Source: a virus
Length of the DNA stretch: 64,000 nucleotides
Reading direction: 5' to 3' (one strand)
IMG/VR virus record: IMGVR_UViG_3300021976_000001
Position numbers and translations under genes: made by a program. Of the stretch, positions 5,822 through 51,933 are shown in pieces. The notes beneath the pieces are model-generated. The model saw only the letters and a program-made list of their open reading frames with translations. It did no database searches and was not told where the DNA came from. Positions within the stretch are counted from its first letter, which is position 1. Each line of letters starts with the position of its first letter.

Positions 5822-5978
5822 CGTCATCTCCTCCCGGTACGTCTTCCTTGTCCGCCGATGCGTATTCACTCATATACAGCATGTCTGGGTCCTCACCATT
5901 GGCCACTCTATGCAGCAGCTCCAGCAGGCGCTCTTCACTGATGGTCCACCAGACAGGTTTGTGACTGATATCACTCAC
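5796..5978 (-). CDS. hypothetical protein (60 aa, acidic tail)
   Basis: ORF track. Start overlaps the stop of the 1167-aa gene. Confidence 0.4.
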   Translation of the reverse strand: MSDISHKPVWWTISEERLLELLHRVANGEDPDMLYMSEYASADKEDVPGGDDDDYSPEGG

Positions 5979-8900
5979 AGAATGGTTACCTTTCCGTTCG
6001 TGACCATTGATCGTGCACCGTGCCGGCTGCTGGTGCGCCCCTGTATGCCGCCACCGCCCGTACCCACACCACTAGGCAACTCATCTGGCGGAGGCAACAA
6101 CCGCACTATCGTCAGGCCCGACTCAGTCTCTACGACCTGCGCCACCAGACGTAGCTTGGAATGCAACCAGGCTTGAGCTAGCTCCATCTCCTGAGCCTGG
6201 CCCAGCACGTGACCCTTCACGTGTGCGAATGCCTGGGCTGCTTCCGTCTCAACAACTTGTGCAATAGCCTTCCGCTTCAATGCGGTAAAGGGCATTGCAA
6301 TTTCTGTCTCTAAGGCGGTGTTAATCCTACCAGGTTGCGTGAATAGCCGGGCAATCTCTACTTCAATGGCCTGACCAACCAAGCGGGTCTTCAGGCGTGC
6401 AACGGCCGTGGCGGTCTCAGTTTCCACAGCCTGAGCCAGTACCCTGGACTTCACCCTGGTAAAGGGCTGCGCTATCTCTGTCTCTGTGACTAGCCGCAGC
6501 TGCCCGGGCGCCACAATTGTGAGTGCTGTCTCCATTTCAACGGCTTGCACTAGTGCACGCATCTTCAAACGTGCTATGGCAAATGCCGTCTCAGTCTCTA
6601 CACCCTGCGCAACAAGCCTACTCTTGACACGAACCACAGCCTGTGCCGCTTCTGTTTCAACTGCCTGTAGCAAAGACCGTGTCTTGACAGCAGTTATAGG
6701 CTGCGCTGTTTCCAGCTCCACAACCTGCCGCATCAGGTCCAGAACCAAGACGTCAATAACCTGACCCGTCTCCAGCTCCACCGCCTGGGCAAGGATCTTG
6801 GACTTCAGCCGGGCCACCGCTTGCGCCACTTCGGTCTCGGTGGCCTGCCCTATGGCAAGCAACTTTCGCCCGGTAACAACCAGAGCGGTCTCTGTCTCAA
6901 CGGCTTGTGCCGCAACACGAGTCTTGAGGCGCCCCGTAACTGTCGCTGTTTCGGTCTCCAGAGCCTGCGTAAGCGGCTTGGCCTTGACCCGTGTGAAAGT
7001 CTGCCCAACCTCGTTCTCAAGGGCCTGGGCGACCACACGGGCCTTCAAGCGCCCTGAGAGCGTAGCAACCTCGGTCTCTACTGTCTGAGCAAGCGTACGA
7101 GCCTTCACCCGGGTTACTGGCTGAGCTACCTCCACCTCAACCGCCTGCGCCACGGCCTTTGTCTTGAGCCTGGCTATGGGCTGAGCAATCTCTGTCTCCG
7201 TAACTTGGTTGAAAGGCGGCATCACTAAGCCGGCTTCCCACTTCACTGCGAAGGTAGCGGTGCAGTACTCTTCAGTTGAAGCAATGGTGAAAGGACCAGG
7301 ATCCTCAGAACCAGTAGTCAACACCTGCAATGCGTAAGCCAGGCTCACACCGTCGGCAGCGTCACCAGAGTTAACCGCAGCGCCGTCCACGTAACCAGCC
7401 GGATATGCCGTAGTAGCTACGACACCGCTGTCATAAGCAGCCGCCGCTATTGAAACTATTTTTTCAATCGCCCACCCTGTCGGATTCAACGCAGGAGAAT
7501 CAAGTGAGGTAGAGGTGTTCCCCTGAAAAACAGCAACTTCTGGAGGCACCGTCAAATCCACATTTGTCAAACGCCATACCTTGTGTGCACTGGTTTGGGC
7601 CACGTCTGTAATTGCTGTCTCAGTGGCACCTTCGCTACCGTCTGCGATCTTGTAGTAACCCCGCAAGGAGCACAAATCTCCGCTGTGAGCAGTGTTGCCC
7701 AAAGACACCCAGTTGTCTGCAAAATCACCAGACACAATAGGACGAGCGTCGTAACTCTGTAGCGCCAACAACAATCCGCCACTACCAGCGGGCATGTTCA
7801 CCACGTGACTAGTGCTGTTGGTTGGCACTGCCGTTTCCGCTTCACTTACGACAGGCCAGTCTCCAGGCCGAATGCGCCCTGCTGTTTCCGTTTCAACGGC
7901 CTGACCAAGCATCCGAGTCTTGACCCGAGCTATGGGCTGCGCCATTTCAGTTTCAACTGCCTGCCCAGCACTTGTAATAAAGCTCTGAGAGGAGTTGGTG
8001 CCAACGATTCCACCATACGAACAATGCGAGTAATCAACTATCCCTTCGTGAGCAGCAGCTACCGCTACACGACCAGTTCCCCTAGGCGTTGGGATGGTGG
8101 CAATGTCGGCAGCGGCATCGGCACCGCCCTTGCGCACGCAGGTACCAGTACCCCCGACAGCTATATCGGCGCCTAGGCTTTCGTACATCACCTGCGTCGC
8201 ATTGATTCCAGTTACAAAACCATTGAGCGTGTCAAGTCCGGCGTCTGTGACGTCCACCGTAATGATGTTGCCCACCATAAAATCGTGAGAACCAATGGTC
8301 AAGGTAGCGGTGCCACCGGTTCGGCTACTGGCGGTGACCGTGTACGTCAGGTGGGCCTTGTCCAGATCAATGGTGAACGCATGATTTGGATCTGTCCAAC
8401 CCGGAAGAGACTGATGTCTGCTCCAGCAGCGAACCTGGAGGATCGTACCTGAGACACGCACTTCCATCCAGTAAGGAAACAGACGCTCGTTGCCTGTAGC
8501 GGAAGTACCAACAACTGCGAGATCGTGCTTGCCGTCCGTGTATTTGAAGGTGGTAGCACTGGGTATCTCAATGACCTTGACCTGACGCACATCGCTACTG
8601 CGGTCTTTGACGGTACCGCTACCGCCCTCGTTGGCGCCTACCTGCGCCCATGTGATCTGCGTAGCGTTGAAGCCCGTAACAGTGAAGGTGCCACTGAACG
8701 TACCTGCACCGAATAGGAAGGCGATGTCGCCGGTCTGCATGCCGTGGCCACTGCCCAGCGTGGCCGTCACGACATTGCTGGCACGGTTCAGTGTAGAACC
8801 AGGAAACTCCTTGGTCCAAGAGATGTTCAGGTAATCGTCAATGACCATTTCATGTGCCACTGACGTTACCGCTGTCACCACACCGCCAACCCTGCTGCCC

Positions 8901-9478
8901 GATGTGATGTTGTAGATCTGCTTCAGGTCAAGTGCTGCGTTACCTTGGCGATTGGTGAAACCAGATCCGTCAAGGTTGCCCTGCCACACCCCGACGTTGA
9001 TGGCGTGCGGATTGCCCACGAACACATCGTGCCAAGCAACGATCGCACGACGTTTGGTATCCTCCTGGGCACGCAGACCAAGCCCGTGCTGAGGCAAGGC
9101 GATACCGGCGTCGTAAGCCTCCGCCTTGATCTCCACCAAGACGTGAGCAATACCCCAGAGACCAGACTCTGGAATAGTAAACATCTCACGCTGATTGGAT
9201 ACTGGGTCCGGCCCGGCTGTCAGAGCTATGTCCAGCTCATGCTTGTCTGGAAACACAGTGTGCTCACTAACAGACACATCGTCTTGAGTATATATCCACT
9301 TGACTATACGATCTTCGTCTGTAACGGTATCCCAGTCATAATCAACAGTACTGATTCCAAAGAACCAGTCGTTCACCATCTCCCAACCAGAGCCCCTGAA
9401 CTCCGTCAGGTTGTTTCGCTTTACACGATCTCCCCCAGATCCGTTTAAGACTCTTCCCTTACCAGAGGTGACGGGCAT
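5975..9478 (-). CDS. large repeat-containing protein (1167 aa), possible fibre/virion-associated protein
   Basis: Long uninterrupted ORF. The N-terminal ~750 aa are beta-rich and Gly/Thr/Val-rich. The C-terminal ~370 aa are 20-residue tandem repeats with consensus VETE-A---R-K-R--AQA. Confidence 0.7.
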   Translation of the reverse strand: MPVTSGKGRVLNGSGGDRVKRNNLTEFRGSGWEMVNDWFFGISTVDYDWDTVTDEDRIVKWIYTQDDVSVSEHTVFPDKHELDIALTAGPDPVSNQREMFTIPESGLWGIAHVLVEIKAEAYDAGIALPQHGLGLRAQEDTKRRAIVAWHDVFVGNPHAINVGVWQGNLDGSGFTNRQGNAALDLKQIYNITSGSRVGGVVTAVTSVAHEMVIDDYLNISWTKEFPGSTLNRASNVVTATLGSGHGMQTGDIAFLFGAGTFSGTFTVTGFNATQITWAQVGANEGGSGTVKDRSSDVRQVKVIEIPSATTFKYTDGKHDLAVVGTSATGNERLFPYWMEVRVSGTILQVRCWSRHQSLPGWTDPNHAFTIDLDKAHLTYTVTASSRTGGTATLTIGSHDFMVGNIITVDVTDAGLDTLNGFVTGINATQVMYESLGADIAVGGTGTCVRKGGADAAADIATIPTPRGTGRVAVAAAHEGIVDYSHCSYGGIVGTNSSQSFITSAGQAVETEMAQPIARVKTRMLGQAVETETAGRIRPGDWPVVSEAETAVPTNSTSHVVNMPAGSGGLLLALQSYDARPIVSGDFADNWVSLGNTAHSGDLCSLRGYYKIADGSEGATETAITDVAQTSAHKVWRLTNVDLTVPPEVAVFQGNTSTSLDSPALNPTGWAIEKIVSIAAAAYDSGVVATTAYPAGYVDGAAVNSGDAADGVSLAYALQVLTTGSEDPGPFTIASTEEYCTATFAVKWEAGLVMPPFNQVTETEIAQPIARLKTKAVAQAVEVEVAQPVTRVKARTLAQTVETEVATLSGRLKARVVAQALENEVGQTFTRVKAKPLTQALETETATVTGRLKTRVAAQAVETETALVVTGRKLLAIGQATETEVAQAVARLKSKILAQAVELETGQVIDVLVLDLMRQVVELETAQPITAVKTRSLLQAVETEAAQAVVRVKSRLVAQGVETETAFAIARLKMRALVQAVEMETALTIVAPGQLRLVTETEIAQPFTRVKSRVLAQAVETETATAVARLKTRLVGQAIEVEIARLFTQPGRINTALETEIAMPFTALKRKAIAQVVETEAAQAFAHVKGHVLGQAQEMELAQAWLHSKLRLVAQVVETESGLTIVRLLPPPDELPSGVGTGGGGIQGRTSSRHGARSMVTNGKVTIL
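6098..7204 (-). repeat. in-frame tandem repeat array, ~18 units of ~60 bp (20 aa)
   Basis: Units were listed by hand from VTETEIAQPIARLKTKAVAQA to VETESGLTIVRL. Two more units occur near 7860-7975. Confidence 0.8.
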
Positions 9479-15676: not shown

Positions 15677-16206
15677 GGTTTCAGCTCTTTCTGTAGTTTT
15701 CTGGACAACACTATCAGATGCTTCAGTGCCGGCATGGCATCGTCATTTGACTTGCCCGGCTGCCATAAGCCCCAGCGACGAAGCATGTCGTCACTTATGA
15801 CCTGCATCTCACTGGGTAGCTGCATCCGTACGTCCACCTTACCATCTGTCTCTGGCTCTAGCCAAAGGTAGAACGTAAGCTTCGCAGCTAGCTCCACTGG
15901 CGATAGTGCATCGCTGTGTAAGTTTGCGTACGGATGAAGAACGAAACCCTCATACACCAGGATGGTCCTGACGTCGTACGCCCGCTGTTTCCCCTGGCCT
16001 GCCTTGGTCATGATCTCAAGCAGGAACTCACGAATGGCTATGCACTGGTCATTCAACGACCCCATGACCTGAAAGGCCTCGCCCCTGCCCGCCTTGAACG
16101 CCTTCACAACCGTGATGTGAGGAGGCTCGTCAGACTTCGGCTTGTACAGGGCATGCGCCACGCCTGTTTCCCCGCCCGGGTCAATCGCTATCAAATTCAA
16201 CAACAT
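15661..16206 (-). CDS. RuvC-like Holliday junction resolvase
   Basis: N-terminal LIAIDPGGETG is the RuvC-type first acidic motif, and a C-terminal DDAMPALKH is present. Start at MLLNL after GGAG; the ORF extends to 16335. Confidence 0.6.
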   Translation of the reverse strand: MLLNLIAIDPGGETGVAHALYKPKSDEPPHITVVKAFKAGRGEAFQVMGSLNDQCIAIREFLLEIMTKAGQGKQRAYDVRTILVYEGFVLHPYANLHSDALSPVELAAKLTFYLWLEPETDGKVDVRMQLPSEMQVISDDMLRRWGLWQPGKSNDDAMPALKHLIVLSRKLQKELKPCGSS

Positions 16207-16243
16207 TGGGATCTCCTTCTGGACAGTGCATACTGAAGCCATG
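16189..16243 (+). repeat. copy 1 of a ~55-bp direct repeat (promoter-like on +; also carries the RBS and start of the RuvC-like gene on -)
   Basis: Aligns by eye with 16534-16590: AT(C/T)AAATTCAACAACAT..ATCTCCTTCTGGA..GCATACT......ATG. Confidence 0.7.
16206..16234 (+). promoter_or_regulatory. candidate promoter P1 (-35 TTGGGA, 17-nt spacer, -10 CATACT), ATG 6 nt downstream (leaderless)
   Basis: Hexamers and spacing were counted directly, and the geometry is identical to P2. Confidence 0.4.
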
Positions 16244-16525
16244 CTCAACATCACCACCCCGGACAGGCCCGACATCTCTGAGGCTGGCGTCACGTTGATC
16301 GGTGTGCCCGTGGGCAACACCCGTGGCGCTCGCATTCAAGCCGTGATCCACTACACCAACGGCATCACCGACGTGCTGGAGTACGACACCATCGCCGGCT
16401 GGGATCCTGAAAGGGGTTTCGGTGGATGGGAGCTGGACAGCATTCTGATCCAAGTCTCCGTCATGGCGGCTATTGCCTGGCTGCGAGATCTACTGGTGCC
16501 GCCTTGCAGCCCCATCGCCAGCTGA
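16241..16525 (+). CDS. plus-strand hypothetical protein (94 aa)
   Basis: Third-position G/C is about 78% by manual count (73/94 codons). The ATG sits 6 nt after the -10-like hexamer. The antisense minus-strand ORF looks non-coding. Confidence 0.6.
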   Translation: MLNITTPDRPDISEAGVTLIGVPVGNTRGARIQAVIHYTNGITDVLEYDTIAGWDPERGFGGWELDSILIQVSVMAAIAWLRDLLVPPCSPIAS

Positions 16526-16533
16526 ACACCGAG

Positions 16534-16590
16534 ATTAAATTCAACAACATGCTTGCGATCTCCTTCTGGAAGGCGCATACTTCGCTCATG
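16534..16590 (+). repeat. copy 2 of the ~55-bp direct repeat
   Basis: See copy 1. On the minus strand it retains GGAG plus ATG TTG TTG AAT TTA ATC, but that frame stops after 26 codons. Confidence 0.7.
16553..16581 (+). promoter_or_regulatory. candidate promoter P2 (-35 TTGCGA, 17-nt spacer, -10 CATACT), ATG 6 nt downstream
   Basis: Same geometry as P1. Confidence 0.4.
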
Positions 16591-16776
16591 ACCGCAACCA
16601 GCACCACAGTCACCCGCTGCGCCTTCACTCACCCCGACTACAAGAATCAGCGCTGCCCCGAGCGCCCGGTTGCCAAGATCCAGGAACTCCCGGCGTTCAC
16701 CGGCATGGTCCGCAACGCCTGTGAGTACCACCGCAACGTCCTCGTCGGCTCCGCTACCTGGAGGATCGTATACTAG
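16588..16776 (+). CDS. plus-strand small Cys/His protein (62 aa)
   Basis: MTATSTTVTRCAFTHPDYKNQRCPERP...ACEYH. Third codon position is G/C-rich. Followed by an intrinsic terminator. Confidence 0.55.
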   Translation: MTATSTTVTRCAFTHPDYKNQRCPERPVAKIQELPAFTGMVRNACEYHRNVLVGSATWRIVY

Positions 16777-16793
16777 CTCCACGAGCCAGCCAG

Positions 16794-16952
16794 CTAAGCC
16801 TCGGCCGCAGGGTCGGGGCTTTGTTGCGTTGAGACACGATCACAGTTGGGGCACACCCGCAAGCGCACGTGCACGTGCTCGGCATGTGTACTACCAATCC
16901 ACACCCGGTCGCCGCAGCACAGCCTGCACGTCTTCCGTGTCCACGGCTTCAT
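16794..16952 (-). CDS. small zinc-ribbon protein (52 aa)
   Basis: Hand-translated MKPWTRKTCRLCCGDRVWIGSTHAEHVHVRLRVCPNCDRV.... ATGA overlap with the upstream ORF. Confidence 0.5.
   Translation of the reverse strand: MKPWTRKTCRLCCGDRVWIGSTHAEHVHVRLRVCPNCDRVSTQQSPDPAAEA
16798..16826 (+). terminator. intrinsic terminator for the plus-strand cassette
   Basis: 8-bp stem GCCTCGGC/GTCGGGGC (two G:U pairs), 6-nt loop, then TTTGTTG. It lies inside the 3' end of a convergent minus-strand ORF. Confidence 0.55.
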
Positions 16953-17092
16953 CGCCTAGGGAACATCCCTTGAAGAATGCTTCTCATCTGCACCACCAGG
17001 TACCTCGTCATAGCGCATTCCAGACAGTCCCGGCCTTTGCCGTGACAGCACTCGCCGGCTAATAGGCGCTCCACGTCGTTGTCCTCAGGCAC
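16949..17092 (-). CDS. small Cys-rich protein (~47 aa)
   Basis: C-terminal part of the 98-aa ORF (ECCHGKGRDCLEC). GTG start is proposed; the N-terminal part of the ORF is Arg/Gly-rich and doubtful. Confidence 0.35.
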   Translation of the reverse strand: MPEDNDVERLLAGECCHGKGRDCLECAMTRYLVVQMRSILQGMFPRR

Positions 17093-17339
17093 GCTCAGTC
17101 GCCGCCTGACGAGACGCAACAAGGCCCGGCACCATTGCGGGCACCTCTCGCTTGCGTTCTGGCACGGCCGATCTGACAACCGTCTCAGCCATCTGCCGTT
17201 CCTCCTGCCTCCAGGCCACCCACCAAGGCGCCTGCGATCCAACATCCGTGTCCCAGTCCATCACAACCGACTCAGGCAAGTGACGATCAACCCGGCAAAC
17301 ACCAGACCCACGCTCACGTTGATGGCAATGGCTTCCCAC
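17085..17339 (-). CDS. hypothetical ORF (84 aa), doubtful
   Basis: ORF track only. GTG start without an RBS. Confidence 0.3.
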   Translation of the reverse strand: MGSHCHQRERGSGVCRVDRHLPESVVMDWDTDVGSQAPWWVAWRQEERQMAETVVRSAVPERKREVPAMVPGLVASRQAATERA

Positions 17340-17561: not shown

Positions 17562-17740
17562 GTACTGACCACCTTTCTTCCTCGCATAACGATCTTCTTG
17601 CGCTTGCTAACGGGCTTCGCACTTTCGCAAGGTCCACACGTGTCGGTCTTGTTGTAGACGCTGAGGATAGTGCCGCATGCGCACCTGCGCCCAGCCGGCA
17701 TCAACTGCCTACCGCTGCCCTCTTCCCTGATCTTGGTCAT
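17558..17740 (-). CDS. small zinc-ribbon protein (60 aa)
   Basis: CACGT...CGPC motif pair. Confidence 0.5.
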   Translation of the reverse strand: MTKIREEGSGRQLMPAGRRCACGTILSVYNKTDTCGPCESAKPVSKRKKIVMRGRKVVST

Positions 17741-18393
17741 ACACCCTTCACCTTGCGAATCATGGCGCTGTCGCCACGCTCCGGTACGTTCTCAATGTTG
17801 TGGCACCAGCAGCCGCACACGTTGGTGCAGTTGCCCGGACACTCAGGCCAATGAGATCTGAGAACAGACTTAGGCCAGTGAGATCTAAGAACCTTCTCTG
17901 CCTGAGCTACCTGCTCCGCATCGCCCTGCCACCCCTCACCGTCGTCGTGGGTAACAATGGCCACAGGTGCTTGCGGCGGAAGTCTGGTGGCGTCGTGACG
18001 CACCATCAAGGGGCTCATAGCACGAGCCTGGTCCAGTGCCTGCTCGGAAAAGACCAAGGCGGCACGCACCTTGTCGTAATCCTTACGCAGGGAATGAATG
18101 AGATCCAAGGCCCGGCGATATCCCGCTGCTGCTTCGTCCTCAGTACCGTACGTGTGCTCTCGCTTGTCAGCCTCGGCCTGTAGCCAGTCGGTGACGTTGC
18201 CCTGCCGGTAGTCCAACACCGCCTTTCGCATAGTGGGAACGTCAATGAAGTCCAGCTCGTTCACCATTCTAAATCGGGCAACCTCCACCACCTCACCCTC
18301 ACTAGTATGAATGCGAACGGATACCCCTGGATTCACCTTTTCAATACTGATGCCGTACACCTTGTACGGCTCTGTCGTGTGCTCTTCTGTCAT
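17737..18393 (-). CDS. hypothetical protein (~218 aa) with Cys-rich C-terminus
   Basis: Start at MTEEHTT after AGGAG. Contains a duplicated VLRSHWP segment. C-terminus is CPGNCTNVCGCWCH. Confidence 0.55.
   Translation of the reverse strand: MTEEHTTEPYKVYGISIEKVNPGVSVRIHTSEGEVVEVARFRMVNELDFIDVPTMRKAVLDYRQGNVTDWLQAEADKREHTYGTEDEAAAGYRRALDLIHSLRKDYDKVRAALVFSEQALDQARAMSPLMVRHDATRLPPQAPVAIVTHDDGEGWQGDAEQVAQAEKVLRSHWPKSVLRSHWPECPGNCTNVCGCWCHNIENVPERGDSAMIRKVKGV
17846..17899. repeat. 2 x 27-bp in-frame tandem duplication
   Basis: GGCCAATGAGATCTGAGAAC... is followed by GGCCAGTGAGATCTAAGAAC.... Confidence 0.7.
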
Positions 18394-18401
18394 ACTCGCT
18401 C

Positions 18402-18584
18402 CTATGGACCGTATTGATCCCAATGAGCCAGTCCATGCACCCGGGCAGCGTTGGTGCCCAGATCGCTGGCTATCCGCTTGACCATGCCATGTCGCTTCTT
18501 AGGACCCAGCTGCATCCACTGCTGTTGCAGCCGTTGGTACTTGACATGCGCCCGGATAGCGTCGTTCTCTACTGTGTCTGGCAT
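18402..18584 (-). CDS. hypothetical protein (60 aa)
   Basis: ORF track. Confidence 0.45.
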   Translation of the reverse strand: MPDTVENDAIRAHVKYQRLQQQWMQLGPKKRHGMVKRIASDLGTNAARVHGLAHWDQYGP

Positions 18585-25149: not shown

Positions 25150-25429
25150 GTGCCGCTCCTGTATCTGCTATTCCAAAGGTTTCCAGGTCCTCATAGAAGA
25201 CCTCCAGAGGATAGCGGTTATCCACCACCTTGATGGTGTAGACCTCGCCCACTTCGTTACGAAGATGAGGACTATGGAAAGCCAGCACCACTTCGCCATT
25301 GCAGACCAGCTCCAGCGTGACACCAGGTTGCTGGATCCTGACGAGAGCCAGATTCTTCCAGTCGTCCATCAGGTGTAGTGCCGGCTCGCCCTCTTGCGGC
25401 ACTAGACGGAGTAGCCAGCGCCTATGCAC
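25142..25429 (-). CDS. hypothetical protein (~95 aa)
   Basis: GTG start just before the ThyX stop is proposed. Ends in GAARA, the same as ThyX. Confidence 0.45.
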   Translation of the reverse strand: MHRRWLLRLVPQEGEPALHLMDDWKNLALVRIQQPGVTLELVCNGEVVLAFHSPHLRNEVGEVYTIKVVDNRYPLEVFYEDLETFGIADTGAARA

Positions 25430-26534
25430 GAGCCGCTCCTGGATCCATTCTCCACTCGTTGTCTTGAATGCCCTCAAGCAATGTCTCGTCGCCCCGCTCA
25501 CCTTCGTCCTGCGTCATCACAGGCACCCAGGCGGGCACACTCCAGTGATCGCTGGAGAGGCCGTGCTTGTGGAACTTCTCCACCCTGTCCCTGATAGTGC
25601 AGGCCCGGTCAAAGCTGGCCTGGAAGGGGCAATGCCCTAGCTGGTAACAGATGGGCCGGAACAGCGCACTGTCAGCGATGGCCTCCTGTTGCCAGTTGCC
25701 ATCAGTCCAGCCACCAGACTCGTGATCGTAGATCTCATAGTTTCGGATGGCCCTGATGATCTGTGCGAACACCAATCGCCAGTGGAACTGAGCCTGCGTA
25801 CACAACCGGTTGCCTGCGTGCTCTGAGAGATTGCGCAGGTCGGTCACGTATTGGATGCGGGTGGCCGTGCAATGCGGCAGCAACCCACGGGCTTCTTCAG
25901 CCGGCATCCCATCGTCCACCAGATAGCGGTACGTGTCGTCCAACACCTTCAGGGCGTCATCCCAGCGATCACGCCACTGCTGCGGCTTGTCGGCTCGGTA
26001 GTCGTACCCCACCACGATGCCCTCAGCACGTGGATCAATGGTGCCCTGGAGGCTAGGCGGCAAAGTGCTGCCATATCGCAGGTCATCCACCACCGCAAAG
26101 CGCAATGATTCCTGAGCGTAGACGGCCGTACGCTGACGCACCAGCTGATGCGTGAAGGCCCGGTCTACACCCTCAATCAAGAAGTGCAACTTCACAGCCT
26201 CCAACGGAGCACGCAGGTGAGTTGCCTGGGTGTTTTCCCAAGCCCGTCGTCGGTCTTCATCAGTGAGGTCTGACATATCACGGATCACTCTGCCCTCGTA
26301 CATGCTGGCCAACGCAGCAACCGCTCCTAGTGGGTCCGGTGTCATCCAGAGAAGCTTGACCGTGGGCACCGTGCCACCGTTCTCAGCCATCTGGAAGCGC
26401 TGGTCCTGAGGGAATTGCTGCGAATCACCAGTGGGAATGCCTGTGGTACCCGCCGGTCGTAACGTATCGCTGGCTTCACGCTCCAGCTTCTCTTCATACG
26501 CACGAAGGCGCTCGCTTGGGGTCTTATCTGTCAT
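25422..26534 (-). CDS. thyX: ThyX-like flavin-dependent thymidylate synthase (divergent signature)
   Basis: LVRQRTAVYAQESLRF aligns with the ThyX motif RHRxxSxxxxSxRY. A downstream ARGLLP...T...N.R......R....AQ block is also present. Confidence 0.7.
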   Translation of the reverse strand: MTDKTPSERLRAYEEKLEREASDTLRPAGTTGIPTGDSQQFPQDQRFQMAENGGTVPTVKLLWMTPDPLGAVAALASMYEGRVIRDMSDLTDEDRRRAWENTQATHLRAPLEAVKLHFLIEGVDRAFTHQLVRQRTAVYAQESLRFAVVDDLRYGSTLPPSLQGTIDPRAEGIVVGYDYRADKPQQWRDRWDDALKVLDDTYRYLVDDGMPAEEARGLLPHCTATRIQYVTDLRNLSEHAGNRLCTQAQFHWRLVFAQIIRAIRNYEIYDHESGGWTDGNWQQEAIADSALFRPICYQLGHCPFQASFDRACTIRDRVEKFHKHGLSSDHWSVPAWVPVMTQDEGERGDETLLEGIQDNEWRMDPGAARA

Positions 26535-29547: not shown

Positions 29548-29907
29548 TCATTTCTCCCACTCCACCAGTTTCTGGCGCCCATCATGATCCTCTATGAACA
29601 GCTTCAAGGTGCCGTCCATACCAATGCGCAAGAACACCTTGACTCCGAAGGTCCAAGCGTCCAGCTGTACGGTCCAGCCCTCAAGAGAGCCCACCACATG
29701 TCCATCGGTGGCGTCATTGAACTCTCCCAGCAACCGGAAGGCACGCACGTACAGCGGCACATCGTTGGGTAGGTGCATGCCGGTAGACCCGTCGTTGTAC
29801 TGTTCGGGCACACCTGGTCCCCGGTTGTACTTAGGAAGGTCCAATTCCTGAGGCGGAACCTTGCGTCTGTTGCGATTGCTGGGGCGCTTGCGTGGTGCGG
29901 CTGCCAT
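29548..29907 (-). CDS. hypothetical protein (119 aa), basic N-terminus
   Basis: ORF track. Confidence 0.5.
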   Translation of the reverse strand: MAAAPRKRPSNRNRRKVPPQELDLPKYNRGPGVPEQYNDGSTGMHLPNDVPLYVRAFRLLGEFNDATDGHVVGSLEGWTVQLDAWTFGVKVFLRIGMDGTLKLFIEDHDGRQKLVEWEK

Positions 29908-30656
29908 CAGCTCTCTCCTCCGTCTATGCGCAACGTCGTACCGTTCAACATGCCGGTATTCAGACGCAGGTTATGAACGATGATGCTGGCCAGATCCTCT
30001 GGAGTGATGGTGCGCCCGCCCGGCGTCCGGGTGAAGGGCACGCCCTTGGGAATGCGATGGGCAACATCATTAGACATGGGGGTATTGTCCACCCATCCCG
30101 GCTCATAGGCGTAGATGCTGAGGAGATCAAAGTTGGCTGCCGTGTGCCGGGCAGCACACTTGACGGCCATGCTCAAAGCTGCCTTGCTGGCGTTGTAGGG
30201 CAGGCCCGTGGATCGCACCACACCAGCACTGTTGCTGCTGATTACCACGAAGTTGAGTTGACCAACGTTGGCGTGCTCATGGCTGCGCCAGTAGTTCAAC
30301 CACGCTTGCAACACAGCCATAGGCCCCAGCACGTTGATACAGAAATCCTCCTCCATCAAACCCAAGGTGTACGGGTCGCTCAAGGTGCCTTCGTGGTTTA
30401 CACCCACGGTGCACACCACGTCGTGCATGGGCTCGTAATCGTGGAACAATTCGTCAGCCCAGGCAATGCTCTGCTCCAATGAGTCCGCCGTGAACTCAAC
30501 GTCCTCATGGGCGGTTTCACCAGCTGTCATGATCTTATTGTGACTGCCCAGCATCTGCGCCCAGGCTGCCACATGCGCTCCGATGCTGTCCGGGCGAGCG
30601 CCCACCACCAGTAGATTCTTCAACTTGACGACCTCCTGTAGTTGGTACCCACACAT
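29907..30656 (-). CDS. short-chain dehydrogenase/reductase (SDR)
   Basis: LLVVGARPDSIGAHV is a Rossmann-type motif. SSNS...YNASKAAL gives the Ser-Tyr-x3-Lys catalytic motif. The likely start is TTG at 30623 after GGAGG. Confidence 0.7.
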   Translation of the reverse strand: MCGYQLQEVVKLKNLLVVGARPDSIGAHVAAWAQMLGSHNKIMTAGETAHEDVEFTADSLEQSIAWADELFHDYEPMHDVVCTVGVNHEGTLSDPYTLGLMEEDFCINVLGPMAVLQAWLNYWRSHEHANVGQLNFVVISSNSAGVVRSTGLPYNASKAALSMAVKCAARHTAANFDLLSIYAYEPGWVDNTPMSNDVAHRIPKGVPFTRTPGGRTITPEDLASIIVHNLRLNTGMLNGTTLRIDGGES

Positions 30657-32147: not shown

Positions 32148-35100
32148 TTAGTCTTCAAGCACCCAGAGATAGTTAACGGACAGCATACGTCTTGATATGC
32201 CGTGCCACTTCTTGCCTTTGATCAACACAGCATCGTTCTCTATATCAATGCTCCATACGTCATCCCTCCAGGTGTTGTAAACAAAGCGATTAACTGAGAT
32301 GTGGACCGTACCGGTTTCGTCCTCGCCTTCCATGGTGACCCACTCATTAAGGTCTGGACGCTTGACGTCGTTAGGGTCAAGGACTTCACCGGTCTTGGAG
32401 TGGTGTACCTCAAACAGATCTTTGAGGTTGCGGTACTTGATCACACCCAGCCACACACACTCAAAGTCTGTCTCGGTCTTATCGTAAGGGATATCTTCCG
32501 AAGTGGCCGTGGGTGCCGGCAGTCGGTACGTCTGCCCCGGTGACCGGAAACGCCCGTCCTCGTCAATCATGTCAACACCACTGTTGAGAACTGTACGGAT
32601 GACGTGCAACTTCTTCTTGAGACGATGCACCCCAAACGGATCCTCTTCCTCTGCGAAGTCTGTGATGGTGGTCACGGTTTTAGGACCTATGCCACTAATG
32701 CGAGACAAGTGCTTCCAAGTGGTGCCGTTGTCTGCATCACGCAGGAAGTCGGTAATGGCACGGGCCTTCACCTCGCCTATGCCGGGCACCTGCAACCAGC
32801 CAGCCTGAATGCCCCTGCCACCCACCGACCACGTGATCTCACTGTCCAGCCCTATGGAGCTATGCGGTATGTCGTGTGACAGCGCATCACGCAGTAGCGA
32901 CAGCTGCTTATCGTCAAACTTGCGTAAGCAAGCTATGAAAAACTCACGAGGGTAGTGCCGCTTCAACCACATGGTCCAGTAGGCGAGTAATCCATAACTG
33001 ACGCAGTGCGCAGCGTTATTTTTCATCACAACTCCATTGGCTATGTAGTTGTGGTTGTTGTCATTCATCTCTATCATGTAGACATATTCCATTTCATCCA
33101 TAGAAACTATGGAAACAACCCCGGAGGAAACAGTTGGTTTGCCCACCGAGTCACGACCAAGTCTTTCACCCTTGGAATAGTCAAACTTCTTATGACAGGA
33201 GTTACACAGCCTTAGGATATTGTCAGGAGTGTGATACTTGAGATAGTCTCCGCCAAGATCCGTCAAGCCAACTACGTGAGCGAATTCTAGGTCGTGCTTG
33301 CCACCACTACCGACGGCACCGCAACTCTCACATTTGTTACCTGAACGATCAAGAACTATTTGCTCTGCTTCTCTAATTGCCCCGGTGCGACCGTCTATCC
33401 ATGAAGGATTCCCAGAGCCTTTTTCAAAACCTTTTTTAGAGTTATCATAGGTTGATTTTCGGGGCTCGGTACGAACCTTGCTGGGTTGCTTGTATTGGTA
33501 TTCGGTGTCTTCACATATGATATCGTCTCCAACCCCCAGTTCAAAGATCTCGGTGTATCCGTGCGTCGTAAGAACACGATGAACTCCGGTACCCTTAAAG
33601 GACATACCATTTTCAAGAGTCACCATATAAATCGGCTGGGTAATTGGTGACCTGTCTATAGATAGGAACTGGCGAGGTCTAACACGGCCGTCCCCATCCA
33701 TTTGTTGCAGAGTGATTCGTTTGCCACGTTGTCCATAACGAAGCTTCTGTCTAAGTGAATTGCGCTTGTCCGGATGGTTGTATGCCTCCCATAGCTGTTT
33801 CATGGTGTATGTAGCTCCACCACTGGAGCCTCTGCCGCCTGTCTGAACCACTGCGTCTCCGGTCAAGCAGAATGCATAGGCGCCCGCCGTTGCCATCAAA
33901 GACCACACCTTGATGGCGTCAGCTTCTTCCATTCCATGAGTAGCAGCACCCTCCACAAACTTGTGCTGAAGCTTGTTGAACTCCTGCTCGCCACGCTTCT
34001 TTGAGATGATGCGTCGTACACGACCGGCTTCTAGGTACGAGAACTCACCCAGCTCCCGGCATATCTGGAGTATCTGCTCCTGGTAAACGATCTGGTACTG
34101 GGTGTGCTTGGTGATGCCGTCCACAATATCGTTGAAGCGCACCGCTGGTTTGCGGTCAAACTTCACGTCAATGTAGTCACCAGTTGCACCAGAGTGTAGT
34201 GGACCAGGGCGGCTAAGCGCATTAATGTCTGCCACTTCCATGAAGTTGTCAGGCTTCACACCGCTGTTGACCTGTCGTGTGGCACGACCGTCAAACTGGA
34301 ATATGCCTGTCACATCCTGCTCCCGGAAACCCAGTAGTGTCTCCTTGTCGTCAAGAGGCAGATTGTATAGCTCCTCCAGTGTCATGCCGATTTGCTCAAG
34401 ACATATACGAATCATGGCCATGGTCTTCAGCCCCAGTAGATCCAGCTTCAAGGCGCCCAGGTATTCCACGTCGTACTTGTCTAGCGAGATCACTTGCAAC
34501 GGCTCGCCCGTTTCCGGGTCCAACTTGATGCCGCCCTTGCTATCTGTCTTAGAGTAGATAGCACAGAAGTCGGTCAGGGGTGCGTTGGCCACCACCAAGC
34601 CGGCCGCATGCACCGACATACCACGGACGTTACCCTCAAGACGTTGCGCCTTAAGCAGGTTTGGCCAACGCTTGAATATGTCAGCCACCTGCGGAAACAT
34701 CTCAATGGTGTCTTCCACGGTGGCATCCGGCCGCAGGTCGCCGGACTTGCGCTCAATCAACAGGTCTTTGACAGTATCCAGGTCACTACGGCACGCCCAG
34801 TTGTCACGATAGAGGGCCATCTGCACGTCGTTGAGACTGTTCTTGCCCTTGTATTTGATAAACGTACCGATGCTGCCAACTCTATCGCCGCCGTACTTGT
34901 CGGCCAGGTACTCACGGATCAGATAGCGCTTCTCATCATCAAAGTCCAAATCAATATCAGGAGGATCGTGCCTGTTCTTATCCATGAAGCGTTCAAACAC
35001 CAGCACCGGAAAGTGCATTGGGTTCACTTCAGTAATACGCAGGATGTAGCAAACCAGCGAGGCTGCTGCCGAGCCTCGTGCTGGGCCGACTGGGATGCCA

Positions 35101-36356
35101 CTGTCTTTGGCGTAGACAGTGACGTCCGCCATCACCAGAAAGTAGTCAACGAACTGCTTCTCTTCAATTAGTTCCATCTCGTACTTCACCCGAGCTATGT
35201 ACTCAGCCTTTGTCACTGGATCCAGCTTGCGGAAGCCCCGGTACTTCCAGCCGTCGTTAACGAGCTTGCGAAACAACGTGAGGTTGTCGGGTACACCGGG
35301 CGGCAGCGGGTAGCGCAAGTTGGTGACCTTAGGCAGCCGCACCGTGCACCGCTGAGCTATCTCACGGCTGTTGCGGATGGCTTGTTCGGCCTGCGCCTTG
35401 CTGAGACCGGTGCGTACCAGCCGCTTGTAGATGTCCTTGTCGGAAAGAGGACACAGTGGGATGTCGTAGCCCCAGGTTTGATCTAGCTCCTCAGCAGTCT
35501 TCTTACCACCAGACCGCACCGAGTGAAGAATTGCCTGCATTTGGCCTTCATCCGGAGTGGTGTAGTGCGCATCCAGTGACGCAACCAGTGGAATTCCCAG
35601 TTCTCTTGACATCTTTGCCAATCCGACATTGATGTTGTTCGTCTTTTCAAGCTCAGGGAACGCCTGGACTTCAAGATAGTACGCATCTCCGAGAAGTCGT
35701 TTGAAACGAGCAGCGACAGCCTTAGCTCGTGGATATGAAGCGTCGCCCACTTCAATGTTCTTTCCACCAGTGAGAGAGGTAGACAACAGACTACCCTGAC
35801 AACCCGAAAGCACAACAAGCCCATCGCAGTACTCCTTCAGAAGTGCTCCATCAATGGTCGGTTGATAGTAGAAACCCTTGTACCAAGCCTGACTCACCAA
35901 CCGAAGCAGATTGGCGTAACCGGTCTGGTTCTCAGCCAGCACCGTCAGGTGATTCTTCTTCATGGTGCGCTCTTCACCAATGTCACCACAGTAGAACTCG
36001 CAGCCGAACAGCGGCTTCACACCGTGCTTATCGCAGGCTTGCTCGTGCTGGACATGCGCAGTCACGTTGCCGTGATCCGTCACTGCGAGAGCGTACATAC
36101 CCATCTCAGCAGCCCTGAGACTGTGCTGGGCAGGCGTACCGAAGCCGTCCAGATACGAAAATGTCGTGTGATGATGAAGCGAACAGAACACCATGTCCCC
36201 AGCGGACTTGAGGCTCTCGCCCTCCTCCCAGACCACCGCCTTCAAGCCGGCTCGGCTGAGGATCCTTAGGCGTCGTGCTTCTGCCTCAGTGGTGGAACTC
36301 TTAAGAGCCTGGCTCTCCGAAGAATGAATCGCCACTGTCGTCAAACACCTCCACAA
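32148..36356 (-). CDS. dnaE: DNA polymerase III alpha subunit (DnaE-type) interrupted by an intein
   Basis: PHP motif FCSLHHHTTFSYLDG. The conserved ...AYAF/NAAHCVSYGLLAYWTMWLKRHYPREF aligns with [30 protein letters not shown]. The probable true start is MVFCSLHHH at 36194. Confidence 0.85.
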   Translation of the reverse strand: MWRCLTTVAIHSSESQALKSSTTEAEARRLRILSRAGLKAVVWEEGESLKSAGDMVFCSLHHHTTFSYLDGFGTPAQHSLRAAEMGMYALAVTDHGNVTAHVQHEQACDKHGVKPLFGCEFYCGDIGEERTMKKNHLTVLAENQTGYANLLRLVSQAWYKGFYYQPTIDGALLKEYCDGLVVLSGCQGSLLSTSLTGGKNIEVGDASYPRAKAVAARFKRLLGDAYYLEVQAFPELEKTNNINVGLAKMSRELGIPLVASLDAHYTTPDEGQMQAILHSVRSGGKKTAEELDQTWGYDIPLCPLSDKDIYKRLVRTGLSKAQAEQAIRNSREIAQRCTVRLPKVTNLRYPLPPGVPDNLTLFRKLVNDGWKYRGFRKLDPVTKAEYIARVKYEMELIEEKQFVDYFLVMADVTVYAKDSGIPVGPARGSAAASLVCYILRITEVNPMHFPVLVFERFMDKNRHDPPDIDLDFDDEKRYLIREYLADKYGGDRVGSIGTFIKYKGKNSLNDVQMALYRDNWACRSDLDTVKDLLIERKSGDLRPDATVEDTIEMFPQVADIFKRWPNLLKAQRLEGNVRGMSVHAAGLVVANAPLTDFCAIYSKTDSKGGIKLDPETGEPLQVISLDKYDVEYLGALKLDLLGLKTMAMIRICLEQIGMTLEELYNLPLDDKETLLGFREQDVTGIFQFDGRATRQVNSGVKPDNFMEVADINALSRPGPLHSGATGDYIDVKFDRKPAVRFNDIVDGITKHTQYQIVYQEQILQICRELGEFSYLEAGRVRRIISKKRGEQEFNKLQHKFVEGAATHGMEEADAIKVWSLMATAGAYAFCLTGDAVVQTGGRGSSGGATYTMKQLWEAYNHPDKRNSLRQKLRYGQRGKRITLQQMDGDGRVRPRQFLSIDRSPITQPIYMVTLENGMSFKGTGVHRVLTTHGYTEIFELGVGDDIICEDTEYQYKQPSKVRTEPRKSTYDNSKKGFEKGSGNPSWIDGRTGAIREAEQIVLDRSGNKCESCGAVGSGGKHDLEFAHVVGLTDLGGDYLKYHTPDNILRLCNSCHKKFDYSKGERLGRDSVGKPTVSSGVVSIVSMDEMEYVYMIEMNDNNHNYIANGVVMKNNAAHCVSYGLLAYWTMWLKRHYPREFFIACLRKFDDKQLSLLRDALSHDIPHSSIGLDSEITWSVGGRGIQAGWLQVPGIGEVKARAITDFLRDADNGTTWKHLSRISGIGPKTVTTITDFAEEEDPFGVHRLKKKLHVIRTVLNSGVDMIDEDGRFRSPGQTYRLPAPTATSEDIPYDKTETDFECVWLGVIKYRNLKDLFEVHHSKTGEVLDPNDVKRPDLNEWVTMEGEDETGTVHISVNRFVYNTWRDDVWSIDIENDAVLIKGKKWHGISRRMLSVNYLWVLED
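33018..33869 (-). mobile_element. intein (~284 aa) with an HNH endonuclease domain
   Basis: Block A CLTGDAVV, block B TGVH, HNH motif CESCG...H...N...CNSCH, and C-terminal YIANGVVMKN. Removing it leaves a DnaE of about 1118 aa, which is a normal length. Confidence 0.65.
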
Positions 36357-48577: not shown

Positions 48578-48838
48578 TCAACCGACCAGCCTGAACGAAA
48601 CACCCTCGTTGAGACTGGTAAGCCTGGCCACAACCTGCTCGTCAGTTTCGGAACCGAAGCGTCGTGCGTCGTAAGCCTTGCCCCAGCGGCCACTCTTGTT
48701 CTGTCGTTGGATCTTGACGGTGTCGGCCTGACGATCTTCACGGCTAGCCAGAGCCTTACGTACTGAATTCATTTCACCGGCGCCTGTGATGGTTGCTCGC
48801 ATGTGGATCAGTATGCGCCTTCCAGATGTAGATCGCAA
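48578..48838 (-). CDS. hypothetical protein (64-86 aa)
   Basis: ORF track. The likely start is the internal MNSVRK at 48772. Confidence 0.45.
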   Translation of the reverse strand: MRSTSGRRILIHMRATITGAGEMNSVRKALASREDRQADTVKIQRQNKSGRWGKAYDARRFGSETDEQVVARLTSLNEGVSFRLVG

Positions 48839-48885: not shown

Positions 48886-48910
48886 TCTTTGCGGTGGACT
48901 GCTGGCGATT

Positions 48911-49990: not shown

Positions 49991-50177
49991 GGTTCTATCT
50001 CCTGTTCTGTTTGGTGAAGTTAATCCCCACCACGTCCAGCCTGTACTCACGCCTACCTACACTGACATCCGGTGCCCTACGAAAGACCGTGGTCATGACG
50101 CTCTGGGCTGTGGACCGTTGAGGGGAGGTACTAGCAACTGGTGAACCCCATGCGGGGTTACGTGGTGAGGAGAAGAA

Positions 50178-50249
50178 CGCCGGGCTCTACCAATTGAGCT
50201 ACCAGCCCTCGTAGTGGACTGGACGGGATTTGAACCCGTATCTCCGGCC
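50178..50249 (-). ncRNA. circularly permuted tRNA-like module (T arm - capped acceptor stem - D arm)
   Basis: The minus strand reads GGCCG GAGAT ACGGG TTCAAAT CCCGT CCAGTCC A CTACGA GGGCTGG TA GCTC AATTGGTA GAGC C CGGCG. All stems pair. U8, A14, G18G19, A21, G53-C61, TTC and A58 are present. Confidence 0.55.
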
Positions 50250-50250
50250 G

Positions 50251-50319
50251 TGGCCAGGTAGGGAGTTGAACCCTACTTACCCGTTGTCGGGGCGCTACCG
50301 AGTTGAATTCACACTGGCC
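50251..50319 (-). ncRNA. degenerate tRNA-like element (possible tRNA pseudogene or mimic)
   Basis: Acceptor GGCCAG/CTGGCC is 6 bp. The T arm TAGGG-TTCAACT-CCCTA is good. There is no D stem, and the anticodon-like loop CGACAAC lacks U33. Confidence 0.4.
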
Positions 50320-51036
50320 GTGTTGAGCGGTTTCGCCTAGTGGCCGTGCTCAGGGCCTCTGATCCCTCGCCCTTTGCAGGCTCCGGGTAGAGCTGGTGAA
50401 AGCTCTGCAGGAAGCTGGGACGTGGGCTTAGCGTCTGTTTGACACGTCTTAGGTGCGCTTATCTGCAATCGGCACGTACGCCCAACTCCCTGCGGAGCTT
50501 TCACCTTTGTGGCGAAGACCCTGCAGGAAGCTGATTCGGTATTCCCTCCTTGTCCTCTTGCCGGTGCCATCGCACGTCCTTCCCAGAGCCAGTGCCATCA
50601 CCAGGGCTGGTGTGGTCTGCGGTCTGAGAGGCGTGACCCGTGGAAGAGTCAGATACCCCGCAGCTCCCTGCGGAGCCTTCGCTTGTCCCTTGTTTCGGGA
50701 GGCTGTGACCCCTCCGCCGGCCCTACTGTTGGACTTGGCCGCCACCATTTTCGCCTGGTGCTGGCGGCAGATCCTTGGTGCGAACCGGGCGCCCTACTGG
50801 CTTGCCGGCCACTGGAACCTGCTGGCTGCCTTGGCCCCTTGCGGGGCTGGCTTGCTGAAGATCAATGTACTCTCACCAGGAACAGATCGCAAGCCCAAAT
50901 ATGAGAATTTATAAGAAAGTCTATGACCAGGGAATTTACGAGGGCGAGCCAGGTGACAGGGCACGGTCCAGCCTGCCACCCGGCTTCTAGCCCCTGTTCC
51001 CACCAGATCGCCAGACCATCCAGTGGGAAGCCCTCG

Positions 51037-51261: not shown

Positions 51262-51933
51262 TCAGTCCACGAGACTGCGGAGAGCGTCCGAAGTGGCGTC
51301 GTCCACTTGCTTCGGCGCCACACCGATGGCTCGCAGGGCGCTGCGCTGCGCAGGGTTGAGTGACTTGACATTGCCGCCACCCACCCACAGAGCAGGATTA
51401 CCGGGGCTGTCAATGATCAAATCCATGTCTTCTTCCTCTGGTTCGGGGGTTTCAGTTGTGAGGGAGCGGTTGTTCCACTGGTAAGCCAGGACGGTGAACT
51501 CTGAACCTGGACAGGGCTTCACCTTGAAGGCGTTGTGCGGTAACACCTGAGTTCCACAGTGTTCGGCCTTCCGGCCCTCAGCGATCAAAGACTTGGTGTC
51601 AGCCACCATGGCCTCTGTAGGCGCCTCGTTGGGATAGCCGGTACCAGGACCGCCACCGATGAACTCAAGAACAGAGAACCAGGCGGAATCCGGACCGTCG
51701 TCGTGACCTACCACATCAGTACCACCTGCGTACTGATTCTTGTTCCAACCACGACCAACGAACCTTGTGCCGTGCGGACACACGCCAAACGAATAGGCGA
51801 TGTCGTTGGAGTCGGGCCACTTCTGCTGATGGTATGCCTTCACACCATTCCAGAACGAAATGCAGCGAGAGTGAGGCTTACCAATGCAGTTGGCTGACGG
51901 ACCGTTGTGATGGATTACGAAACCCTTCTTCAT
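51262..51933 (-). CDS. endolysin, N-acetylmuramoyl-L-alanine amidase (amidase_2/PGRP-like) plus C-terminal domain
   Basis: FVIHHNG...AYSFGVCPHGTRFVGRGW... is typical of amidase_2. Position after the tail genes fits. Confidence 0.75.
   Translation of the reverse strand: MKKGFVIHHNGPSANCIGKPHSRCISFWNGVKAYHQQKWPDSNDIAYSFGVCPHGTRFVGRGWNKNQYAGGTDVVGHDDGPDSAWFSVLEFIGGGPGTGYPNEAPTEAMVADTKSLIAEGRKAEHCGTQVLPHNAFKVKPCPGSEFTVLAYQWNNRSLTTETPEPEEEDMDLIIDSPGNPALWVGGGNVKSLNPAQRSALRAIGVAPKQVDDATSDALRSLVD

Follow-up and report, generated by a model that had tools for sequence, protein, structure and literature searches.

Positions 16206–16833 of a 64,000-nt stretch of viral DNA (IMG/VR virus record IMGVR_UViG_3300021976_000001; the whole stretch is hereafter referred to as the window) probably form an autonomous plus-strand expression module in a phage genome that is otherwise laid out on the minus strand. 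This module (hereafter, the cassette) lies flush with the start of a minus-strand gene for a RuvC-like resolvase and comprises a promoter-like element (P1), an open reading frame (ORF) of 94 amino acids (aa; ORF1), a second copy of the promoter-like element (P2), an ORF of 62 aa (ORF2), and a putative terminator (Table 1). The window covers most of a genome of ~66.7–66.9 kb, with ~2.8 kb of genome beyond it, and all of its recognisable genes are located on the minus strand. An initial annotation, prepared from the sequence alone, had described the cassette as the only convincing plus-strand transcription unit in the window; a codon log-odds model trained on 19 long minus-strand genes of the window agreed, as the ORF containing ORF1 was the top plus-strand ORF (34 bits), while all others reached ≤18 bits and were located inside long minus-strand genes.

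Coding evidence for ORF1 and ORF2

ORF1 presented a codon score of 0.27 bits per codon, which is on par with other real genes (e.g., 0.21 for the RuvC-like gene), whereas two overlapping minus-strand ORFs of 143 and 90 aa scored ~0. A homologue of ORF1 (P0002), found on Joint Genome Institute (JGI) contig L001, is 72% identical and equal in length, with no indels over 285 nt; omega (the ratio of nonsynonymous to synonymous substitution rates) for this pair was 0.46 in the ORF1 frame, the lowest value among the six frames. Conservation of the minus-strand frame, which the initial annotation had named as an outcome that would speak against the cassette, was looked for; two of the minus-strand frames over ORF1 carry stops in both the window and L001, and the third is open in L001 but stopped in the window. 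Together, these patterns indicate that ORF1 is a genuine plus-strand gene and that it is under purifying selection.

An exhaustive profile search identified six further relatives of ORF1 (98–113 aa), and the family shares the motifs PDRPDI, RG, YD..GW, GG, and AxEWL as well as a C-terminal PPCSPxAS. Both distant homologues for which contigs were looked up are located on phage-like contigs, where each is an ordinary member of a co-directional operon; a tblastn search with one distant homologue (P0011) against phage records found nothing. Three long repeat proteins that also matched the profile (P0010, P0013, and P0017) were judged to be low-complexity or repeat artefacts rather than relatives. 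On two contigs (L023 and L024), a distant ORF1 homologue is located directly upstream of a gene for a large protein similar to the 1167-aa protein encoded in the window. An AlphaFold model of ORF1, built from an 8-sequence alignment, presented three long beta strands and a C-terminal helix (predicted local distance difference test score, 82.6; predicted template modelling (TM) score, 0.72). This model had no fold match in the PDB or BFVD (best E = 0.09; TM-scores < 0.45), and the ORF1 sequence had no match in Pfam, PHROG, NCBIfam, PADLOC, or among PDB sequences. ORF1 thus appears to belong to an uncharacterised family of small phage proteins with a predicted beta-sheet-plus-helix structure, a new family with a confidently predicted but unmatched fold whose members were encountered solely on contigs resembling actinophages.

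ORF2 is a less clear case. Two ORFs with high G+C content at third codon positions (GC3) had been claimed for the cassette, and the values obtained here (0.768 for ORF1 and 0.857 for ORF2) bear this out; that of ORF2 is the highest among 58 genes (mean 0.64, standard deviation 0.09 over 57 window genes) and is confined to its own frame, as the other two frames presented values of 0.53 and 0.52. ORF2 also has intact promoter geometry, with its ATG at the predicted +1, ends 20 nt before the terminator hairpin, and was called as a gene on an independently assembled contig (L028). No Pfam, NCBIfam, or PHROG match was found for ORF2, and the best match among PDB sequences had E = 0.64, consistent with the earlier remark that neither product has a recognisable domain. 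The C-x10-C spacing that had been reported for ORF2 was miscounted (C11 and C23 represent C-x11-C), and no metal-binding signature of the zinc-finger or zinc-ribbon type was recognised in its irregularly spaced C11, C23, C45, and H48. Homology of ORF2 to the 98-aa ORF of L001, or to a 53-aa ORF of the related contig L014, was rejected by BLASTP; with the L001 ORF, it has in common the promoter and the first ~11 (CA-rich) codons, while the remainder is unrelated. The putative coding status of ORF2 thus comes from its composition (GC3) only.

The promoter-like element, predicted leaderless starts, and terminator

The initial annotation had reported a ~55-bp sequence that occurs twice, in the cassette. 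Both copies and their geometry were found where it had placed them (copy 1, 16190–16243; copy 2, 16534–16590; one 3-nt indel and a few mismatches between them), but the element is not confined to this locus, as a third copy, with 2 mismatches in 29 nt, was identified on the minus strand at 48838–48810. The repeat consists of 17 nt that represent the reverse complement of ATG TTG TTG AAT TT(G/A) AT, followed by TTG(G/C)GA, a 17-nt spacer containing TCTCCTTCTGGA, CATACT, 6 nt, and ATG. The window contains the 14-mer GATCTCCTTCTGGA at just two places, and the 29-nt core had three window matches at ≤3 mismatches, as compared to none in 100 dinucleotide-preserving shuffles. The −35 of P1 overlaps the last base of the opposite-strand RuvC start codon, while P2 is preceded by a duplicated RuvC 5′ fragment (16534–16550). 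A contig from an independent assembly of another sample (L028; SRR7026475) is 100% identical to the window, and so provides no sequence variation; it starts at 16223, inside copy 1, probably due to an assembly break caused by the repeat.

Copy 3 is located on the main gene strand and precedes a 74-aa ORF with leaderless geometry, for which family searches (including PADLOC) found no match; together, these elements make up a full stand-alone unit (48887–48542, minus strand) with a terminator, copy 3, the 74-aa ORF, and a second terminator. Because this main-strand copy has its own leaderless-geometry ORF and flanking terminators, the 29-nt element appears to represent a standard promoter of this phage lineage, TTGCGATCTnCnTCTGGAAGGCGCATACT, rather than a duplicated ribosome binding site (RBS), and we infer that it is of the host primary-sigma type; it is thus a candidate for the consensus promoter of an uncultured group of phages.

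Further instances were found in two other genomes. On contig L001, a single strand encodes first the 3′ portion of RuvC and two small genes, then three small ORFs (71 and 98 aa, followed by the 94-aa ORF1 homologue), and lastly a Gp80-family gene. Upstream of each of the three ORFs lies TTG(C/T)G(A/T), separated by 17 nt from a −10-like hexamer, with 6 nt between this hexamer and the ATG; the ORF1 homologue, with the same cassette geometry, is co-directional with all of its neighbours. A 68-kb Logan contig (L014; SRR26786847_13703) presents an antisense site at 9995 with TTGCAT, 17 nt, CATACT, 6 nt, and ATG. The arrangement of −35, 17 nt, −10, 6–7 nt, and ATG was therefore seen in seven of seven instances from three genomes (window 16206, 16553, and 48838; L001 706, 964, and 1331; L014 9995), each of which opens an ORF of 53–98 aa with an ATG start. 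Four of the seven (copy 3 and the L001 copies) have no opposite-strand gene, which argues against the motif being an RBS element of an opposite-strand gene; the promoter reading is supported as the only one that fits all seven instances. A 14-nt spacer segment, TCTGGAAGGCGCAT, is common to copies 2 and 3 of the window and to the L001 site at 964. None of the seven ORFs has a purine-rich, Shine-Dalgarno-like tetramer within ~13 nt of its ATG; an AAGG is found 14–15 nt upstream of the ATG in three of them. On L023 (3906–3943) and L025 (3741–3779), TTGCAx, 17–18 nt, TAxCAT, 7 nt, and ATG were observed at the head of a small operon that includes an ORF1 homologue, a geometry that may be due to chance. 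A metagenome scan with TTGNGAN6TCTGGAAGGCGCAT returned 11 loci (L003–L013), which were unrelated to the window by tblastx and were set aside as chance or foreign matches.

Cluster A stoperators are 13-bp repressor sites in temperate phages, and Cluster K start-associated sequences accompany ribosome-binding sites. Like both of these, the window motif is a short conserved sequence that recurs immediately upstream of gene starts; unlike them, it has a full promoter layout, leaves no room for a leader, and occurs only three times in 64 kb.

The hairpin that closes the cassette (16796–16821), followed by UGUUGCGUUG, reaches −30 kcal/mol (z = −3.8) when folded as plus-strand RNA, but only −12.9 kcal/mol (z = +1.6) as minus-strand RNA, so that the stem-loop previously noted here is predicted to act in one direction. 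A hairpin with a U-rich tail is also found downstream of the 74-aa ORF, the L014 ORF, and the last two small ORFs of L001 (GC-rich in the latter). The tail of the cassette terminator, CTTTGTTGCGTTGAG, recurs after the terminator at 48887–48856 and resembles the L001 terminator tails, in which TTGCGT represents the −35 of the next cassette, suggesting that the plus-strand array of the window was cut out of a longer co-directional array. A candidate minus-strand terminator at 17114–17150 was dropped, as its fold had z ~0 and it is located inside a gene conserved in L014.

In actinobacteria, many mRNAs are leaderless. As the −10 sits 6 nt before each ATG, host RNA polymerase would be predicted to start at or next to the ATG, yielding leaderless mRNAs. 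With no usable Shine-Dalgarno sequence, and no hairpin identified between ORF1 and P2, ORF2 would need its own 5′ end, which may explain why the promoter is present twice: ORF2 would be efficiently translated only from its own 5′-terminal AUG. If each leaderless ORF needs a promoter of its own, the promoter is copied along with the gene. Both transcripts would end at the single plus-only terminator, while minus-strand transcription toward RuvC would pass through it. Among Mycobacterium tuberculosis genes whose primary transcription start has been mapped, 26% are leaderless, and TANNNT is the −10 consensus (PMC3898074). Like actinobacterial leaderless genes (PMC3898074, PMC4633059), the cassette ORFs have a −10 located 6–7 nt before the ATG, no Shine-Dalgarno sequence at a functional distance, and small products. 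They differ in having CATACT instead of TANNNT, in that their start sites are predicted rather than mapped, and in the near-verbatim repetition of the whole 29-nt promoter and spacer, which is not a feature of host leaderless promoters.

Several observations weigh against an autonomous two-gene module of this type. The hexamers match the Escherichia coli σ70 consensus at only 8 of 12 positions and are missed by a generic σ70 scan, which, given an actinobacterial host, is a caveat rather than a contradiction. CATACT lacks the first T of TANNNT, with A2 and T6 kept, and the spacer is far more conserved than σ70 recognition needs, which could reflect a phage-specific factor or simply recent copying. 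The U-tract of the cassette terminator is interrupted (UUUGUUGCGUU), and a possible 52-aa minus-strand ORF (16794–16952) reaches into the terminator with its 3′ end. As for ORF2, its codon score is near zero (0.03), and a homologue search of 5.8 billion proteins returned only ORF2 itself. The last two observations, together with the resemblance to the L001 98-aa ORF over the first ~11 codons only and the fact that the gene caller skipped ORF2 on the 66-kb contig, would fit a cassette in which ORF1 is the sole gene and the ORF2 stretch represents a non-coding 3′ region or the remnant of a truncated cassette. We consider this unlikely, as GC3 is raised in the ORF2 frame only, and to the most extreme value of the window genes, and as the promoter geometry, the position of the terminator, and the gene call on the other contig all favor a second gene.

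The conserved spacer could also suggest that the 29-nt sequence is read by a phage-encoded factor, rather than by the host primary sigma factor alone, and that the cassette and the unit at 48838 belong to a timed (e.g., middle) regulon. The identity of TCTGGAAGGCGCAT among three copies from two genomes, the weak match to the E. coli consensus, and the recurrence of part of the promoter motif at 50892 (TTGCGATCTgTTCCTGG), where the early region begins, are consistent with such a factor. However, the window ORFs scanned yielded no sigma factor, RNA polymerase, or recognisable transcription factor, and in the remaining L001 and L014 instances the geometry is retained while the spacer sequence is not, suggesting that geometry and hexamers are constrained while spacer identity may represent recent copying. 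A CCTTC-NN-GAAGG dyad was rejected as a candidate operator, as it is present in copy 2 and not in the other copies. Recognition by a phage-encoded factor is thus unlikely, and host RNA polymerase remains the favored source of cassette transcription.

The slot upstream of RuvC and the origin of the cassette

On the minus strand, copy 1 contains an RBS (GAAGGAG, 16216–16222, within the P1 spacer) and the RuvC-like start codon at 16206, while copy 2 contains the same RBS followed by ATG TTG TTG AAT TTA ATC and a stop after 26 codons, as the initial annotation had already read from the sequence. The closest relative of the RuvC-like protein (P0005, from L014; 59% identity) aligns from residue 1 (MLINL as compared to MLLNL), which indicates that the ATG at 16206 is the true RuvC start and that AAATTCAACAACAT in copy 2 is a derived duplicate, in agreement with the proposed duplication of the resolvase 5′ end. 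The 26-codon decoy ORF thus results from the duplicated RBS and first six codons in copy 2. Over 37 nt, the left half of copy 2 (RuvC codons, −35, and TCTCCT) differs from copy 1 by 2 mismatches and the indel, while the right half (TCTGGAAGGCGCATACT) has the same sequence as copy 3 up to and including CATACT; the right-hand match to L001 runs ~11 codons into the ORF, beyond which the proteins are unrelated. Copy 2 is therefore best described as a mosaic of two promoter copies, which may have arisen when the RuvC-proximal promoter and six RuvC codons were duplicated and then recombined with a canonical promoter.

Comparison with related phages, which the initial annotation had proposed, showed a patchy distribution. 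The window and L014 have the same gene order around the cassette slot, with genes of 58 aa and ~44 aa upstream and RuvC downstream, but the slot holds ~590 bp in the window and a single different cassette of 199 bp in L014. This 199-bp gap, which is empty in the gene calls, contains the antisense promoter-like site, a 53-aa Cys-rich ORF, and a hairpin (−29.6 kcal/mol, z = −7) with the tail UUUCGUCUGUUUU. The stop of this ORF overlaps the stop of a convergent 105-aa gene in CTAG, and its terminator hairpin lies within the 3′ end of that gene. In three more distant relatives (L018, L019, and L022; 44–51% RuvC identity), a co-directional gene abuts RuvC and there is no cassette. A 312-nt gap upstream of RuvC in L021 was also considered, but it contained neither a convincing motif nor a convincing ORF.

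The G+C content of the cassette is 60.4%, as compared to 56.0% for the window and 66% for L001. Raised GC and GC3, the co-directional arrangement in L001, and the patchy distribution suggest that the module was acquired by recombination, at shared promoter and terminator sequences, from higher-GC relatives in which such units are co-directional; the slot flush with the RuvC start may represent a conserved docking place for antisense cassettes. Our best guess is that the ORF1 and ORF2 products are accessory proteins that the phage can do without, expressed by host RNA polymerase separately from the main gene programme. The role in defence or exclusion that had been suggested for them is pure conjecture; PADLOC defence models had no match at E ≤ 0.1 to ORF1, ORF2, the 74-aa ORF, or the L014 53-aa ORF.

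The initial annotation had also called the cassette moron-like, a description that holds in most respects. Morons of the HK97 gene 15 type have been described by Juhala et al. (2000) and reviewed by Cumby et al. (2012; PMC3594210). Like these, the cassette is a small unit with, at the level of sequence, its own promoter and terminator; it has a composition unlike that of the surrounding genome and is present in one phage but absent from the same place in relatives (three do without it, and the fourth has different content there). Unlike classical morons, it is antisense to the entire genome, has two genes and two promoters, and uses the phage’s own standard promoter rather than a foreign one. 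While morons belong to temperate phages and are expressed from the repressed prophage, the genome analysed here looks lytic and, therefore, a prophage role is probably inapplicable; the cassette thus fits four of the five usual moron features, with prophage expression as the one that probably does not apply. As an ordinary kind of add-on gene module, it overturns nothing, but it illustrates cleanly, at the level of sequence, how actinobacteriophages package and move small accessory genes.

A broader reading, which we consider quite unlikely as a whole, would extend this to units of promoter, leaderless ORF, and terminator that are exchangeable as cassettes and recombine at shared boundaries, with the RuvC-side antisense slot in addition serving as a transcription-collision timer for RuvC and later genes. 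One type of exchange boundary would be formed by the 29-nt promoter together with the initial ~11 CA-rich codons, and another by the terminator tail CTTnTTTGCGTT, doubling as the next −35. Consistent with such exchange, ORFs are swapped, re-ordered, and inverted between genomes, the ORF1 promoter differs between the window and L001, ORF2 and the L001 98-aa ORF are alike in promoter and N-terminus alone, and copy 2 is a mosaic.

No minus-strand promoter-like site was found in 16207–17100, suggesting that RuvC transcription probably comes from polymerases that read through the cassette, in opposition to P1 and P2; the locus would thus represent a natural case of convergent transcription beside an essential-looking resolvase gene. 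The module could then be mainly regulatory, with convergent transcription from P1 and P2 interfering with, or timing, expression of RuvC and later genes, a possible contribution of the decoy ORF, and the protein products secondary. That the position flush with the RuvC start is kept in L014 despite wholly different ORF content would fit this, as would the one-way terminator, past which minus-strand polymerases would cross ~590 nt against two promoters. However, ORF1 shows purifying selection and its family sits in ordinary operons elsewhere, and three relatives do without the cassette, which leaves a mainly regulatory role improbable as compared to a module that serves to express its ORFs. Least probable by far is that the repeat is a mere duplication of the RuvC translation-initiation region and the plus-strand ORFs are shadow ORFs: both copies do carry GAAGGAG and ATG TTG TTG AAT on the minus strand, and the 143- and 90-aa minus-strand ORFs span the region, but these ORFs score ~0, as compared to 0.27 for ORF1, the homologue keeps the ORF1 frame open and free of indels with the lowest omega while the minus frames carry stops in one or both sequences, this homologue is co-directional with its neighbours in L001, and copy 3 and the L001 copies present the motif with neither an opposite-strand gene nor a Shine-Dalgarno sequence.

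Genome context and minor observations

Table 1. Coordinates of the cassette, of related elements, and of selected genes (window positions unless another contig is named).
Feature	Position	Strand	Description or evidence
P1 (predicted promoter)	16206–16240	plus	−35 TTGGGA 16206–11, 17-nt spacer, −10 CATACT 16229–34, 6 nt, ATG 16241
ORF1, 94 aa	16241–16525	plus	codon score, homologues, omega
P2 (predicted promoter)	16553–16587	plus	−35 TTGCGA 16553–58, 17-nt spacer, −10 CATACT 16576–81, 6 nt, ATG 16588
ORF2, 62 aa (putative)	16588–16776	plus	C11, C23, C45, H48; GC3, promoter geometry, terminator after
Cassette terminator (putative)	16787–16833	plus	11-bp stem 16796–16806/16811–16821 with G-U pairs; tail UGUUGCGUUGAG
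Decoy ORF, 26 codons	16550–16470	minus	MLLNLISVFSWRWGCKAAPVDLAARQ; codon score −0.42
RuvC-like resolvase gene, 181 aa	15661–16206	minus	phrog_1981 at 5e-19
Terminator before copy 3 (putative)	48887–48856	minus	−36 kcal/mol, z = −5.5
Promoter copy 3 (predicted)	48801–48838 (core 48838–48810)	minus (main gene strand)	TTGCGA, 17 nt, CATACT, 7 nt, ATG 48802
74-aa ORF	48578–48802	minus	leaderless geometry, under copy 3; terminator before and after
Terminator after 74-aa ORF (putative)	48563–48542	minus	
L001 promoter-like sites	L001: 706, 964, 1331	co-directional with neighbours	−10s CATGAT, TTCACT, TTCACA
L014 53-aa Cys-rich ORF	L014: 9800–9995	antisense	MTEATTCSKCFQPEATCDCPPELGPHRY...CQLCGQG...; leaderless-type promoter, uncalled
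1167-aa protein gene	5975–9478	minus	right-arm end, just before terminase
Endolysin gene	51262–51933	minus	
Tail protein gene	53809–54897	minus	
Tape measure protein gene	57329–60526	minus	

Besides the genes in Table 1, the minus strand encodes a helicase, a DnaE-like polymerase, ThyX, a primase/helicase, a terminase, a portal protein, and head proteins; the endolysin gene is followed, in minus-strand direction, by ~1 kb of non-coding DNA and then by small early genes. Each window ORF of at least 300 aa could be assigned to structure or replication, or else lacks a family match and belongs to the tail block or the right-arm end. Neither an integrase nor a repressor was detected among the window ORFs scanned, and the phage looks to have a lytic-type layout. 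The 1167-aa protein has no Pfam match, and its sole match is a PHROG of unknown function; its L014 counterpart has 878 aa (47–59% identity).

The nearest cultured phages, with 35–49% amino-acid identity in terminase and portal, infect Arthrobacter, Microbacterium, Gordonia, and Mycobacterium, and the RuvC-like protein is ~29% identical (tblastn) to RuvC-like resolvase genes of Gordonia and Mycobacterium phages; because these matches are all from phages of actinobacteria, the host is likely to be an actinobacterium as well. The locus matched none of 50,697 phage records by megablast, the promoter pattern and RuvC gave nothing in scans of IMG/VR, and Rfam and ARAGORN searches over the whole window likewise found nothing.

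A region of ~1 kb without a convincing ORF (50051–51036, minus sense) is located between the endolysin gene and the first early genes. It includes a promoter-like site at 50892–50864 (TTGCGATCTGTTCCTGG, 17-nt spacing, and TACATT, with an AT-rich upstream sequence) that shares part of the cassette promoter, as well as the tRNA-like pieces GGGCTGGTAGCTCAATTGGTAGAGC, GGTTCAACTCCCTAC, and GGGTTCAAATCCCGTC. ARAGORN and Rfam found nothing in this region, which may represent a non-coding RNA or a decayed tRNA array.

The DnaE-like DNA polymerase (1402 aa; 32148–36356, minus strand) also matches HNH endonuclease families at residues ~970–1120, suggesting an inserted homing endonuclease or intein-like element. 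Two minus-strand genes, at 29907–30656 and 25422–26534, encode a short-chain dehydrogenase/reductase family protein (PF13561/PF00106), which is an unusual auxiliary gene in a phage, and a ThyX-type thymidylate synthase. Finally, a tandem 27-nt direct repeat (17841–17892; 88% identical) within a 228-aa gene (17737–18423) encodes a duplicated LRSHWP(K/E) segment.

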